Shown one piece after another: positions 18,158-23,637 of a DNA stretch of 64,000 nt. Below the pieces are notes generated by a model, which had not been told where the DNA came from, made no database searches, and saw nothing but the letters and a program-made list of their open reading frames with translations. A program made the position numbers and the translations under genes. Every line of letters begins with the position of its first letter. The first letter of the stretch is position 1. Origin of the DNA: Escherichia coli (GTDB lineage Bacteria; Pseudomonadota; Gammaproteobacteria; Enterobacterales; Enterobacteriaceae). Location of the stretch: assembly GCF_044324785.1 (NCBI RefSeq), contig NZ_CP172127.1; one strand, written 5' to 3'.

Positions 18158-18243
18158 TGTGTTTACTCCTGATTAGCTATGTGTATTTGGCGACGCCTGA
18201 TATGTCATCGCGGCAAAACGCGTCCATTGAATATAGCCAATAT

Positions 18244-19200
18244 TTAAACCACCCGATCCAGCCCCAACATGCCGCGAGCCTGAATGAAACAGAGCAGCAA
18301 CGTTCCCCATAAGGCCATCGTCAGGTAGGGGCTTATACCGAGAATATTGAAGCCGCTTTCAATAATTTGCAGAAGAAACAGCGCCAGCACCATACCAATT
18401 ATCCGCCCGCTGCCGCCGTCCGGATTAACCCCGCCGAGTACTGCCGCGAGGATTGACACCAGCAAGTACGATTCGCCATAAGAGGCCTTAGCCGAGTTGA
18501 GTTTCGACATCATCAAAAATGCCGCTACCGCACAAAGCAAGGCGGAAATGACATACACCCATATCAGCACCCGACGAGTGTTAATACCGGAGTAAAGTGT
18601 TGCTCGTTCGTTAGAACCAATCAGATAAATGGCTTTACCGAGCGGCGTTTTCTCCAGCAATATCCACAGTCCCAGCGCCACTGCGGTAAACAACCACATC
18701 GGTAGCGGAATACCGAACCACTGTGCATGATTCAACCACAGCACCCATGAGGGATAATTGGCAATGGCGCTACCACCTGTCACCAGAATATTTATCCCTT
18801 TGAGCAACGTCATCATCCCAAGCGTTGCAAGAATTGGCGACACTCGAATACCAGCAATCAATACGCCGTTACATAAACCGATTATCACCGCCGCGCCAGC
18901 GCCCGCCAGTAACGTAGCGACAACCGTAGCAATACCCGGTGGATACTGAGTCGCCACCCACGCCATCACCAGTGAACAGGCGTTAGCAGTGGCTATAATT
19001 GACAAGTTAATGCCACCGCAAAGCATGGTCACCGCCATAGCCAACGCCAGAATGCCCAGCACGGGCATTTGCGAAGCGACGGACTGGAAATTACTTATCG
19101 ACCAGAAAATCTCCGGCATAGTAATGCTGAAGGCGGCAACAGTTAGCACCAGCAGGCCGATCAAGTAAAACTCAACGTTATTACGCCACGATTTTTTCAT
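18244..19200 (-). CDS. sugar ABC transporter permease (second permease of operon)
   Basis: Polytopic membrane ORF; start trimmed to ATG 19200, which forms an ATGA overlap with the upstream permease stop (translational coupling). Confidence 0.85.
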   Translation of the reverse strand: MKKSWRNNVEFYLIGLLVLTVAAFSITMPEIFWSISNFQSVASQMPVLGILALAMAVTMLCGGINLSIIATANACSLVMAWVATQYPPGIATVVATLLAGAGAAVIIGLCNGVLIAGIRVSPILATLGMMTLLKGINILVTGGSAIANYPSWVLWLNHAQWFGIPLPMWLFTAVALGLWILLEKTPLGKAIYLIGSNERATLYSGINTRRVLIWVYVISALLCAVAAFLMMSKLNSAKASYGESYLLVSILAAVLGGVNPDGGSGRIIGMVLALFLLQIIESGFNILGISPYLTMALWGTLLLCFIQARGMLGLDRVV

Positions 19201-20168
19201 AGCAGACTCCGGTTCTGATGCTGACTCCACGCCGTGGCGCTAATGCTGGCAACGATGATGATGCCGGTGATCAATGTTTGCCAGTAAGACGAGACTCCCA
19301 ATAAATTTAGCCCGTTTTGCATTACTGCCAACAACACCACGCCGAGCAAAGTACCGGTTAACGTGCCGCGCCCGCCGAGCAAACTAGTGCCGCCAAGCAC
19401 CACCGCAGCCAGTACTGTCAGCTCATAACCCAGAAGAGAATCGGGGGCGACAGTCATCACCGTCCACGACTGCACTACACCCGCAGCACCAGACATCAAT
19501 CCCATATAGCCGTAGACGAAAAGTTGCAGTTTCAGCACGCTAAAGCCGATGCGACTGGCTGATTCACGGTTCCCGCCAAGGGCATAAATTTTGCGCCCTA
19601 CACTGGTGAAATTCATGATAAACGCTGTTAGCAGCACCACCGTAATCATGGCGATCAGCGGTAGACCAAGGCCATAGTCATAGCCATCAGCATCGGTGTA
19701 CTTGAACAACATTACCCCCTGCTCAAACCACGGCGGAAAGTCGTACAGCCACACACCTTTACTCAACCATAACAGCAGGCCATAGAAAATATTCAGCGTC
19801 GAGATAGTGATGATGATAGAAGGCACCCGTAGGCGATTAACCAGTAAGGCGTTTATTAAGCCAAGTAAAATGCCGATGCCGCCCGCCAGTGCAAACGCGA
19901 CAGCGAAGTTGCCACCAATTTTTTGCAGCAACAGCACCATGCCGTATTGCGCAATGATGGTCATTGCCGGAAACGAAATATCAATTCCACCGGAAATCAA
20001 CACCACAAACAAACCACAGGCGAGAATAGTCAACATGGCATAGTTATTGGCGAGATCGTACAAATTACCGAATGTCAGAAACTCGTCGCTGCGCCAGGCA
20101 AGGCCGACAAACAGCCCCACAATCAGTAATGCCAGCCAGAATTCATGACGTTTTTTCAGTTCAGCCAT
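19197..20168 (-). CDS. sugar ABC transporter permease (first permease)
   Basis: 323-aa polytopic membrane protein of the ribose/AI-2-type permease family; overlaps the ATPase stop by 8 nt. Confidence 0.85.
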   Translation of the reverse strand: MAELKKRHEFWLALLIVGLFVGLAWRSDEFLTFGNLYDLANNYAMLTILACGLFVVLISGGIDISFPAMTIIAQYGMVLLLQKIGGNFAVAFALAGGIGILLGLINALLVNRLRVPSIIITISTLNIFYGLLLWLSKGVWLYDFPPWFEQGVMLFKYTDADGYDYGLGLPLIAMITVVLLTAFIMNFTSVGRKIYALGGNRESASRIGFSVLKLQLFVYGYMGLMSGAAGVVQSWTVMTVAPDSLLGYELTVLAAVVLGGTSLLGGRGTLTGTLLGVVLLAVMQNGLNLLGVSSYWQTLITGIIIVASISATAWSQHQNRSLL

Positions 20169-21645
20169 TTACCACCTCCGCAATCCTGGCCTGAGAACTG
20201 CTGTCAGGCAGGAAGCTATGGGTGATCTGACCTTTCTGCATTACCAAAATCCGGTGGCTTTGATACCACGCTTCTTCAATTTCATCGCAGATCATCAATA
20301 CCGCAATGCCATGAGCCGCCAGATCGCTGATAATGCCGTATATTCCTGCTTTGTTGGCGATATCAACACCGACTGTCGGGCTATCGAGAATCAACAGTCG
20401 TGGCCCAATCGCCAGCCATTTGGCGATCGATACTCGCTGCGCGTTACCCCCGGAAAGCGTACTCACCGGGAGATGTGGGTCAGAGACTTTGATGGTCAAT
20501 GCCTTGATTAGCCTGTCCACCAGGTCACGCACTTTAGCTTCACTCAGAAAGCCGAAGCGATCTTTTACCTTGTGAAAAACAGTGCTAATGATGTTGTCTT
20601 CAATAGATTGCGCCATCACCAAACCGCGCGACATGCGATCTTCCGAAACATAACCAATACCGTGGCGGATGGCGTCCTGGTTACTATGCAGTGTAACCGG
20701 CTGACCGTTGATGAGGATCTCACCAGCATCCGGTCGGGTCATACCAAACAGACTCAGACATAATTCCGTGCGCCCCGCACCAAGCAGGCCAACAATCGAC
20801 ACCACTTCGCCCGCTTCCACCCGCAAGTTAATATTTTGATATTCCCCATGACGACTTAAATTACGCACCTCCAGCACTGGGGTGCTGGATTTTCCCTGCC
20901 ACAACTCTCGTACCTGATATTCGAACTCCTGGCCGGTCATCAGAAAACTGAGTTGTTTTGTGGTCATCTCTGCGGCCGGAAAGGTCCCGACCAGCTCACC
21001 ATCTTTCAGCACTGAAATACGGTCGGAAACTTCCATCACTTCTTCCAGACGATGACTGACGAAGACCACGCAGATCCCGCGTTCCCGCAATTGATGCACC
21101 ACCTGTAATAACCCTTGCACTTCCTGATGGGTCAGCGAAGCGGTTGGTTCATCCATCACGATCAACCGTGCGTCCTGCGCCAGTGCACGGCAAATTGCCA
21201 CCAGCTGACAGCGGGCAATTGAAAGCTCAGAAACGAGCGTATCCAGAGGCAATGTGACGTTAATACTGGTCATTGCCGCCTGCGCCACCTCACGCAGACG
21301 ACGTCGGTTAACAAACAGACCGTGGTGATAGTGATTCACGGCGATATTCTCCCAGACACTCAGGTTAGGAAATAAAGAGAGGTCCTGATAAATCACCTGA
21401 ATCCCCTGCGCCACCGAAGCGGCGGGTGTCAGCTTTGACCAGTTTTTCCCACCAAGCGTAATTTCCGCCCCCTCATCCGGGCGATAAACACCGGACATAA
21501 TTTTAATCAACGTCGATTTACCACAGCCGTTTTGCCCGGCAAGGCAGTGCACCTCACCCGACATAAAGTCGAGAGAAACATCGCGCAGCGCTCGCGTGGC
21601 ATGAAACGTTTTGTTGATATGACGAAGGGAAAGGAAGGTTTCCAT
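20161..21645 (-). CDS. sugar ABC transporter ATP-binding protein with two nucleotide-binding domains
   Basis: ORF 20161..21660 trimmed to ATG 21645 (METFLSLRHINKTF...); Walker A GQNGCGKST, signature LSGGNAQ and a second NBD, as in CUT2-type RbsA/LsrA ATPases. Confidence 0.88.
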   Translation of the reverse strand: METFLSLRHINKTFHATRALRDVSLDFMSGEVHCLAGQNGCGKSTLIKIMSGVYRPDEGAEITLGGKNWSKLTPAASVAQGIQVIYQDLSLFPNLSVWENIAVNHYHHGLFVNRRRLREVAQAAMTSINVTLPLDTLVSELSIARCQLVAICRALAQDARLIVMDEPTASLTHQEVQGLLQVVHQLRERGICVVFVSHRLEEVMEVSDRISVLKDGELVGTFPAAEMTTKQLSFLMTGQEFEYQVRELWQGKSSTPVLEVRNLSRHGEYQNINLRVEAGEVVSIVGLLGAGRTELCLSLFGMTRPDAGEILINGQPVTLHSNQDAIRHGIGYVSEDRMSRGLVMAQSIEDNIISTVFHKVKDRFGFLSEAKVRDLVDRLIKALTIKVSDPHLPVSTLSGGNAQRVSIAKWLAIGPRLLILDSPTVGVDIANKAGIYGIISDLAAHGIAVLMICDEIEEAWYQSHRILVMQKGQITHSFLPDSSSQARIAEVVNG

Positions 21646-22680: not shown

Positions 22681-22930
22681 TTCAGCCTCATTGCAGGGTA
22701 GTCAGGAAGTGTTCGCCCAAATTAGCGCGCTGGAGAGAATAAGAATTTTCGAATATTTTTATGCAGAATAAACAGCCCTATTTCAGGCAGCTATTAAAAA
22801 TTTGGTTATAAATATGGACAAAACGGGCAGCAATAATAAGTGTGACACTCATCACGTAAAAAATAGCAAAATAAACAAAATTAGCGATATTTTATGTTTG
22901 TGAGCTTATTTCGCGTAGAAAAATAGTTAT

Positions 22931-23341
22931 CTACACAACGTCAATAAGGGCATATTCTTCAAAGATAACGTCCATTTCGGGTGAATAGCATCCTTCTGCC
23001 TGGAAAAAACGACGGTGTTCATTACGCCAATATTCAAGACTGAGGTCACCTTCACCTTCCTTACGGGCAAGCTCCGCGGTGACATCAGAAAAGCGCAGTA
23101 AATGCAGGCCAATCACTCTGATAACACAGACAGGCTCACCACGGCTATTTTCTACAATCTTATACTCACCAATCATCGGAAATGCGTTGTCTTCAATACA
23201 TCCCGCCAGCGAACCACAGGAAGCTGTTTTAACACCTGTCGCAATCAACGTTGCGAGGTGATCGGCCAACGCTGCTGAATCGCCAAAAGTACAAAAGGAA
23301 GCATGGGGATATTTTTGTGAGATTTTTTCTTTTATGGTCAT
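22931..23341 (-). CDS. ASCH/PUA-like domain protein
   Basis: ORF 22931..23374 (GTG) or from ATG 23341; GVKTAS motif typical of ASCH domains; no clear Shine-Dalgarno at either start. Confidence 0.55.
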   Translation of the reverse strand: MTIKEKISQKYPHASFCTFGDSAALADHLATLIATGVKTASCGSLAGCIEDNAFPMIGEYKIVENSRGEPVCVIRVIGLHLLRFSDVTAELARKEGEGDLSLEYWRNEHRRFFQAEGCYSPEMDVIFEEYALIDVV

Positions 23342-23637
23342 GAGAATATTTTCGCGATTACGGAAAAAAATCACATCTTAATTACTGTAGATAACCATCA
23401 GCAAGAGGATCATTGGTTTTCCTATGTTTAATCTTTTTTATCCGAAGCAGGTCACATTTATGGCTTGATAAATACCTTTGTTAAAACTCACTTTTGTGTA
23501 TTTCTCTCAAATAATCCCCTGGAAATTATGCCGGGAGATTATAAAGTTCAGGATCATTCATTAACAAACCATTCCCGCCCCACTCCCTGGGGCTTAAATC
23601 TCTTACGATTCACCGTTGCAGACATATCAAATGCGCA

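Follow-up and report, generated by a model that had tools for sequence, protein, structure and literature searches.

A 64,000-nt stretch of Escherichia coli DNA (from contig NZ_CP172127.1; hereafter the window) carries, between yahK and yahJ, a module of five genes. Judged by near-identity of sequence, the four-gene operon within it is aauABCD, the published Aau importer of the CUT2 family of ATP-binding cassette (ABC) transporters, and the module is therefore already known. We consider it highly probable that the operon encodes the Aau importer, that it is an old resident of Escherichia which K-12 lost by deletion, that its AraC/CRP wiring is conserved, and that the ASCH-domain gene beside it is a separate unit. 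Because the module was described, structurally solved and functionally dissected in 2024–2025, its presence here is no new biology; the additions made below (deletion scars, allele frequencies, a conserved operator, and a split between Aau-type and Rbl-type loci) are incremental.

The Accessory L-arabinose Uptake (Aau) system of enterohaemorrhagic E. coli (EHEC) was first described in 2024 as Z0415-Z0419, within O-island 17 of strain EDL933 (Cottam et al., Nat Commun, PMC11127945), and the AauA of this system is the protein in PDB entry 9I1M (Cottam et al., Nat Commun 2025, PMC12307932). AauA of the window is identical to 9I1M at 326 of 328 positions (E 1e-213). In the crystal structure, alpha-D-ribulose is bound by K37, W43, E118, H167, E196 and S223 (PMC12307932); all six residues are present in the window protein, and the two substitutions (D200V and E297Q in 9I1M) are located outside the ligand-contact list. 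Since the six contact residues are present and the aauB reading frame is uninterrupted, the window copy of aauABCD is apparently functional. AauA also matched a Klebsiella homologue, the structural-genomics entry 3D02, with 628 bits; a PDB text search for this entry found no paper.

Features of the region are listed by their positions in the window. All five module genes and the flanking yahK and yahJ are on the minus strand; PGAP denotes the NCBI Prokaryotic Genome Annotation Pipeline.

17108-18157, minus strand: yahK (flank), NADPH-dependent aldehyde reductase
18244-19200, minus strand: aauD, second permease, 318 aa, equivalent to Z0419; open reading frame (ORF) and PGAP coding sequence
19197-20168, minus strand: aauC, first permease, 323 aa, equivalent to Z0418; ORF and PGAP
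20161-21645, minus strand: aauB, ATPase with twin nucleotide-binding domains (NBDs), 494 aa, equivalent to Z0416-7; uninterrupted ORF and PGAP
21667-21684, minus strand: GC-rich hairpin TCGGGGCGAAAGCCCCGA between aauA and aauB; terminator-like site in the scan, letters read
21694-22680, minus strand: aauA, periplasmic D-ribulose-binding protein, 328 aa, equivalent to Z0415; 326/328 to 9I1M
22792-22829, minus strand: candidate AraC operator, I1-like and I2-like half-sites; tandem-pair search and alignment
22841-22856, minus strand: candidate CRP site; 1 mismatch to TGTGA-N6-TCACA
22931-23341, minus strand: ASCH-domain gene, 136 aa; Pfam PF04266
23538-23567, minus strand: promoter-like site before the ASCH gene, TTGTTA-18-TATAAT, 10/12; consensus match only
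23638-25020, minus strand: yahJ (flank), cytosine-deaminase-like amidohydrolase family; NF005312, 716 bits, cutoff 447
18316-22908: K-12 deletion 1, BLAST breakpoints; 63 bp of unmatched sequence in its place
22979-23576: K-12 deletion 2, BLAST breakpoints; 24 bp in its place

The interval from yahK to yahJ (18158-23637) measures 5,480 bp in the window and 376 bp in K-12, in agreement with a preliminary description of this DNA that had put it at about 5.5 kb here and a few hundred bp in K-12. The comparison with K-12 which that description had set as its own refuting test left it standing, as the full five-gene block is absent from K-12 and the gap there holds remnants only. Its reading of the genes also held: a complete sugar ABC operon with an LsrB/RbsB-like binding protein, a twin-NBD ATPase and two permeases (CUT2 by NCBIfam, with a binding protein resembling LsrB, RhaS and RbsB), transcribed in the same direction as yahJ and yahI. 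The ATGA stop/start overlap of aauC and aauD and the 8-nt overlap ATGGCTGA of aauB and aauC, both of which it had named, were read directly in the sequence. yahK lies directly after aauD, and no kinase or regulator gene is present in the module. The hairpin between aauA and aauB could serve as an attenuator or stabiliser within the operon, through which binding protein would be made in excess. A generic promoter/terminator scan is used descriptively only, its number of sites being no higher than in shuffled sequences, and an Rfam scan found no riboswitch or small RNA inside the module. From 17000 to 25100 the window is identical to E. coli strain N3 save one gap, and the RefSeq annotation of N3 gives the same genes.

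In EHEC, a promoter fragment of about 300 bp from upstream of aauA was induced by L-arabinose only and was silent in a delta-araC strain (PMC11127945). An AraC binding site is not described in the Aau papers, and 'binding site' is absent as a term from PMC11127945. In the window, the coding strand upstream of aauA reads, in order, a CRP-like palindrome CGTGATGAGTGTCACA (22856-22841), 11 bp, an I1-like half-site TGCCCGTTTTGTCCATA (22829-22813), a 4-nt spacer and an I2-like half-site TAACCAAATTTTTAATA (22808-22792). The half-sites were compared with the AraC half-site consensus of the literature. This AraC-like tandem pair in a 21-bp register is the only one on either strand of the window, with 0.17 expected from Markov simulations. 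The tandem-pair test is the useful one here, a search for single half-sites being uninformative. Ten upstream sequences from six genera (Escherichia, Klebsiella, Franconibacter, Mangrovibacter, Symbiopectobacterium and Aeromonas) were aligned, and the invariant columns were the CRP half-sites, TCCATAT and the start of I2.

A genome scan with AauA recovered 80 loci, 78 of them non-Escherichia, which separate into two types. The 60 Aau-type loci have AauA identities of about 69-100% and no adjacent kinase, apart from an FGGY-like kinase in Pasteurellaceae; at least 43 of them show the layout CRP-27/28 bp-I1-I2. The remaining 20, of Rbl type, have AauA identities of 60-64%, and no CRP/AraC operator (0/20 for the same layout). 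In all 20 the permeases are directly followed by an FGGY pentulose kinase (TIGR01315, 695 bits for the single one scanned). The gene just upstream of the aauA ortholog in Rodentibacter and Actinobacillus codes for an AraC equivalog (343 and 372 bits, cutoff 208), and a 531-532-aa FGGY-like kinase follows the permeases (12391-13989 of locus L057 and 12346-13941 of locus L042). That kinase, with 100-120 bits against XylB (cutoff 380), fell short of every equivalog and differs from the pentulose kinase of Rbl-type loci; the Pasteurellaceae arrangement of araC and FGGY-like kinase may represent a third wiring for ketopentose use. One further recovered contig, labelled 'MAG: Bacteroidales bacterium' (SFEK01000152.1, 4.7 kb), carries aauABCD with 99-100% protein identity to E. 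coli and is almost certainly a mis-binned E. coli contig.

Because the tandem operator is conserved and araC adjoins the operon in Pasteurellaceae, direct control of aau by AraC and CRP is very likely, and the wiring looks like an ancestral, conserved property of the transporter family and not an EHEC-specific innovation. A concrete candidate operator for direct AraC/CRP control is thereby offered.

The mechanism would run as follows, each step having been shown for EHEC in the cited papers and being extended to the window by near-identity. AraC with bound L-arabinose, probably together with cyclic AMP-CRP, would activate a promoter located within 250 bp upstream of aauA. Periplasmic AauA would then capture D-ribulose (dissociation constant, KD, about 2 µM, versus about 600 µM for L-arabinose), and AauB, AauC and AauD would import it. 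Finally AraB, the L-ribulokinase made in response to the same inducing signal, would phosphorylate D-ribulose to D-ribulose-5-phosphate for the pentose-phosphate pathway. Aau-dependent growth of EHEC on D-ribulose requires both L-arabinose, as inducer, and AraB, as kinase (PMC12307932), and the aau locus confers a competitive advantage in the mouse gut (PMC11127945). The strain from which the window comes is not K-12-like at this locus: with its intact aau copy it should be able to co-use D-ribulose and L-arabinose, a trait tied to fitness in gut colonisation.

It is unlikely, in our estimate, that L-arabinose is itself the physiological substrate, which would make Aau a third route of arabinose uptake, the proposal originally made in 2024. 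In its favour are AraC-mediated induction by L-arabinose only and the partial rescue of a delta-araE strain on L-arabinose by overexpression (PMC11127945), and the conserved AraC/CRP operator and the araC adjacency in Pasteurellaceae are compatible with an arabinose-related role. However, AauA binds L-arabinose with a KD of 598 µM versus 1.98 µM for D-ribulose, and an Aau-dependent gain in growth was obtained only with added D-ribulose (PMC12307932).

The 376-bp gap of K-12 proved to be a composite. From the yahK side, the spacer between yahK and aauD (86 bp) is followed by the final 72 bp of aauD; then come 63 unmatched bp, a 70-bp piece that matches 22909-22978 at 94% identity, a further 24 unmatched bp and the 61 bp that follow yahJ. 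The aauD remnant (18244-18315) is 100% identical to the window and is annotated by PGAP as a fragment 'missing N-terminus'; the 70-bp piece includes the last 48 bp of the ASCH gene. Since remnants of both aauD and the ASCH gene survive in K-12, its ancestor would have been positive for aau and for the ASCH gene, and the K-12 state is, as these breakpoints read, a loss through two deletions flanking the retained 70-bp piece.

The preliminary description had proposed a survey of E. coli genomes for the indel boundaries; besides the breakpoints (18316-22908 and 22979-23576), this yielded counts of three alleles over 5,426 complete E. coli genomes, of which 2,211 (about 41%) have the full module. 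The K-12-type scar occurs as one collinear piece in 2,803, with variants down to about 96% identity to that of K-12, and because the scar class includes such divergent variants, it argues for a single, old origin of the scar allele. In the third allele (60 genomes, at least 99% identity) the yahK-yahJ interval holds an unrelated 1,029-bp segment, as at 2673-3701 of the locus from E. coli WP8-S18-ESBL-07 (L003), equivalent to window 18172-23645; its 215-aa ORF had no Pfam or PADLOC match. In E. coli EC13 (H24, NZ_CP060928.1), the IS66-family insertion sequence ISEc22 is inserted in the scar interval.

A GTDB species representative labelled E. coli SCPM-O-B-8794 (NZ_JAATUR010000022.1; locus L032) bears on the age of the junction. 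Its flanks are 83-93% identical to the window, and it probably belongs to another Escherichia species or clade. There aauABCD is joined to yahK by the same spacer, about 100 bp of the ASCH 3' end lie on the other side, and the aau genes are 91-93% identical to those of the window, a divergence no less than that of the flanks. What the window has at 23031-32268 (most of the ASCH gene, then yahJ, yahI and beyond) is missing from the same locus, whose ASCH remnant is joined to sequence that matches window 32269-33958. The module is also carried by the commensal phylogroup-A strain HS. Regarding haplotypes around the locus, HS shares about 98% identity with the window in yahK and the aau genes, whereas for yahJ and yahI (23638-25980) the figure is only about 95%, for K-12 as well as HS. 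On the yahJ side there are deep haplotypes which do not follow the presence or absence of aau.

Searches at the module found no transposase, integrase, edge tRNA or flanking inverted repeats, and no direct repeat exceeded 27 nt, as the preliminary description had reported for transposases, integrases and long repeats. The G+C content of the module is 0.48-0.53, and both G+C and G+C at third codon positions (GC3) are ordinary for E. coli. On account of the remnants, the junction shared with L032, the absence of a mobility signature, the ordinary composition and the carriage by HS, we infer that aau has long resided between yahK and yahJ in Escherichia, and that K-12 and about half of E. coli would have lost it in one ancient deletion event that left remnants. 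An old indel in place of a recent insertion, as initially suggested, is thus upheld by the scar in 2,803 genomes and the L032 junction, with the correction that it comprises two deletions and not one indel.

Several points weigh against the explanation as a whole. The function ascribed to the window operon is transferred from EHEC Aau by near-identity. Single AraC half-sites at three or fewer mismatches were found at chance level (374 versus 404 expected), and the I2-like site is weak, with 3 mismatches. The K-12 loss would not have been one clean deletion, because no source could be detected for the fillers of 63 and 24 bp: neither shares an exact 15-mer with the window, their best local alignment in the module (22837-22880) scored within the range of shuffled sequences, and no match was found in the aau-positive strain HS. 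Outside Escherichia the operon occurs in unrelated genomic contexts, which is compatible with an ancient horizontal arrival in the Escherichia ancestor, and the genome scan with AauA recovered only one non-coli Escherichia species representative with aau.

The last two of these points would also fit a genomic island gained horizontally by EHEC and the B1 and E lineages, with K-12 as the ancestral empty site, a history that we regard as decidedly improbable. The label 'O-island 17' implies such a gain, and the Aau papers call the locus horizontally acquired and enriched in phylogroups B1, E and D; aau was reported in most B1 and E strains and was largely missing from phylogroups A and B2 (PMC11127945). 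In the K-12 site, however, both aauD and the ASCH gene have left their 3' ends, which is impossible for an unoccupied site and contradicts a recent gain. The lack of integrase, transposase, tRNA and flanking repeats and the ordinary base composition also speak against a gained island, as do the presence of the same junction in an Escherichia lineage about 10% divergent, in which the module has diverged as far as its flanks, and the positive phylogroup-A commensal HS. From these sequence comparisons, the term 'horizontally acquired' finds no support as regards E. coli itself, and the evolutionary framing is corrected to a loss in K-12 instead of a gain in EHEC, with carriers at about 41% and commensals included.

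Loss from an old resident locus can be joined to the conserved operator in a broader proposal, to which we lean with some reserve. Aau would be an ancient member of the AraC regulon, a kinase-less, CRP/AraC-controlled transporter conserved from Pasteurellaceae and Aeromonas to Enterobacterales, which was in the yahK-yahJ interval before E. coli diversified and whose old K-12-type deletion allele later spread through about half of the species; it would not be an EHEC-specific, horizontally acquired 'hijack'. If this is true, co-use of D-ribulose and L-arabinose is an ancestral state lost by K-12 and not a pathogen innovation.

The ASCH-domain gene, which the preliminary description had placed ahead of the transporter genes, is present there, but it is not part of the coupled operon, being separated from aauA by 250 bp; 296 bp lie between it and yahJ. 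The protein matches PF04266 over residues 27-133 (E 8.4e-22), its PDB relatives 1T62 (E 6e-19) and 3S9X (E 3e-16) are both uncharacterised, and no family was found for it in NCBIfam or PADLOC. Its G+C is lower (0.45; GC3 0.39). Where YqfB has the octapeptide GxKTxTxR (presumably GRKTITIR, which agrees with the residue numbering in the YqfB literature), whose Lys, Thr and Arg are catalytic along with an acidic residue, the window protein has GVKTASCG, with the lysine kept, threonine replaced by serine and arginine by glycine. The YqfB structures gave no sequence match to it at E values up to 1. That it is an N-acyl amidohydrolase is possibly so, a reasonable guess and no more. None of the 78 non-Escherichia loci has the ASCH gene, yahJ or yahK beside the transporter. 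In view of the 250- and 296-bp gaps, its own promoter-like match and this lack of synteny outside Escherichia, the gene appears to be a separate, independently promoted unit that is located in the indel, lies outside the aau operon and was caught in the K-12 loss.

It is very unlikely that the ASCH gene, the transporter and yahJ/yahI instead form one co-transcribed catabolic pathway, such as one that degrades a modified nucleoside or an N-heterocycle. The shared strand and adjacency would suit such a pathway, as would the deacylation of N4-acylcytidine by YqfB-type ASCH proteins (PMC6972931; bioRxiv 10.64898/2026.02.27.708502), YahJ being in a cytosine-deaminase-like amidohydrolase family. Yet the synteny is missing from all 78 loci, L032 retains aau without yahJ and most of the ASCH gene, both intergenic gaps are long with a promoter-like site ahead of the ASCH gene, and aau has its own AraC-dependent promoter (PMC11127945). 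Since AraC-dependent induction takes no more than about 300 bp of the DNA upstream of aauA (PMC11127945), co-transcription of aau from yahJ is not needed.

With regard to family, the module belongs to CUT2 (TC 3.A.1.2): all top NCBIfam matches are CUT2 components, with a fused double-NBD ATPase, RbsC/AraH-type permeases and a type I periplasmic sugar-binding protein. None of the four transporter proteins reached an NCBIfam equivalog cutoff. AauA scored 137 bits against RhaS (cutoff 342), 111 against LsrB (cutoff 384) and 46 against RbsB (cutoff 337). AauB scored 425 against AraG, 415 against YtfR and 414 against XylG, AauC 155 against AraH and 148 against RbsC, and AauD 160 against RbsC and 145 against LsrD (CUT2 permeases), all under their cutoffs. 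In NBD1 of AauB, Walker A (GQNGCGKS) and Walker B (LIVMDEPT) are canonical and the signature (LSIARCQ) is degenerate; in NBD2, Walker A is GLLGAGRT, Walker B is LLILDSPT, with serine in place of glutamate, and the signature (LSGGNAQ) is canonical. AauB would accordingly combine one consensus and one degenerate ATP site. A role as rhamnose transporter was dropped, given the RhaS score and the published ligand D-ribulose. The PGAP/RefSeq product name of AauA, 'autoinducer 2 ABC transporter substrate-binding protein', is misleading. That AauABCD is an autoinducer-2 (Lsr-like) importer is scarcely credible, for although that product name and the LsrB structures among the relatives of AauA (E about 1e-21 to 1e-24) point that way, the LsrB score is far under its cutoff and below that of RhaS, the genes nearby are yahK, the ASCH gene and yahJ with no lsrK, lsrR, lsrF or lsrG, and the crystal structure of the near-identical protein contains D-ribulose, bound with a KD of 2 µM (PMC12307932).

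Elsewhere in the window, yahG (26226-27503) encodes 425 aa versus 472, because 141 bp (47 aa) are deleted in frame when it is compared with strains N3 and 042. At the junction (about 26643-26653) two alignment pieces overlap by 11 bp, and identity to N3 is 100% to its left and 98.07% to its right, the haplotype switch coinciding with the deletion; because of this deletion and the lower identity beyond it, the window is not strain N3. Between yahI and yahG, a cluster of repetitive extragenic palindromes and bacterial interspersed mosaic elements (26012-26305) includes naRNA4 (Rfam RF02564, 78 bits) at 26079-26148 on the plus strand. E. coli genomes each carry tens of copies of this segment, and a query containing it matched a median of 32 places per genome. 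ARAGORN called an 81-nt tRNA-Ser(GGA) at 15627-15707 (minus strand) between yahN and yahL, where it overlaps an ORF of 91 aa on the same strand (15392-15667). K-12 is not known to have a tRNA in that interval, and the call may be a false positive.

Among known systems, the features of a mobile genomic island (integrase or transposase, attachment site, flanking repeats, atypical composition) are not those of the module. The ASCH protein has in common with YqfB-type amidohydrolases, which are N4-acetylcytidine deacetylases (PMC6972931), the ASCH fold (by Pfam), the motif lysine and, at the activating position, a residue with a hydroxyl group, and differs from YqfB in length (136 aa versus 103) and in the loss of the motif arginine. 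LsrACDB (autoinducer 2), RhaSTPQ (rhamnose) and RbsACB (ribose) have the CUT2 family and fold in common with Aau and provide its best sub-threshold NCBIfam matches; they differ from it in experimentally determined ligand. At the araBAD promoter, a CRP site is followed by araI1-araI2, tandem AraC half-sites that overlap the -35 element. The candidate aau operator resembles it in its CRP-like palindrome, its two direct 17-bp half-sites, its 4-bp spacer and its orientation toward the gene. In contrast to araBAD, the I1 A-box at aau is TGCC for TAGC and the I2 B-box is TTAATA for TCCATA, degenerate in E. coli, and a distal O2-type site was not identified.

The Rbl system of Citrobacter rodentium (RblABCD-RblK) is alike in CUT2 architecture and has the same published substrate, D-ribulose (PMC12307932), whereas the window module has neither kinase nor isomerase and so lacks the kinase that marks Rbl. 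The closest counterpart is the Aau system of EHEC itself. In the window aauB is intact, while the EDL933/TUV93-0 copy (Z0416-7) is non-functional according to the papers. Gene order and content are otherwise those of Z0415-9, neither locus contains a kinase or regulator, the chromosomal position is one and the same across all aau-positive E. coli sampled, and the two differ in strain background only.

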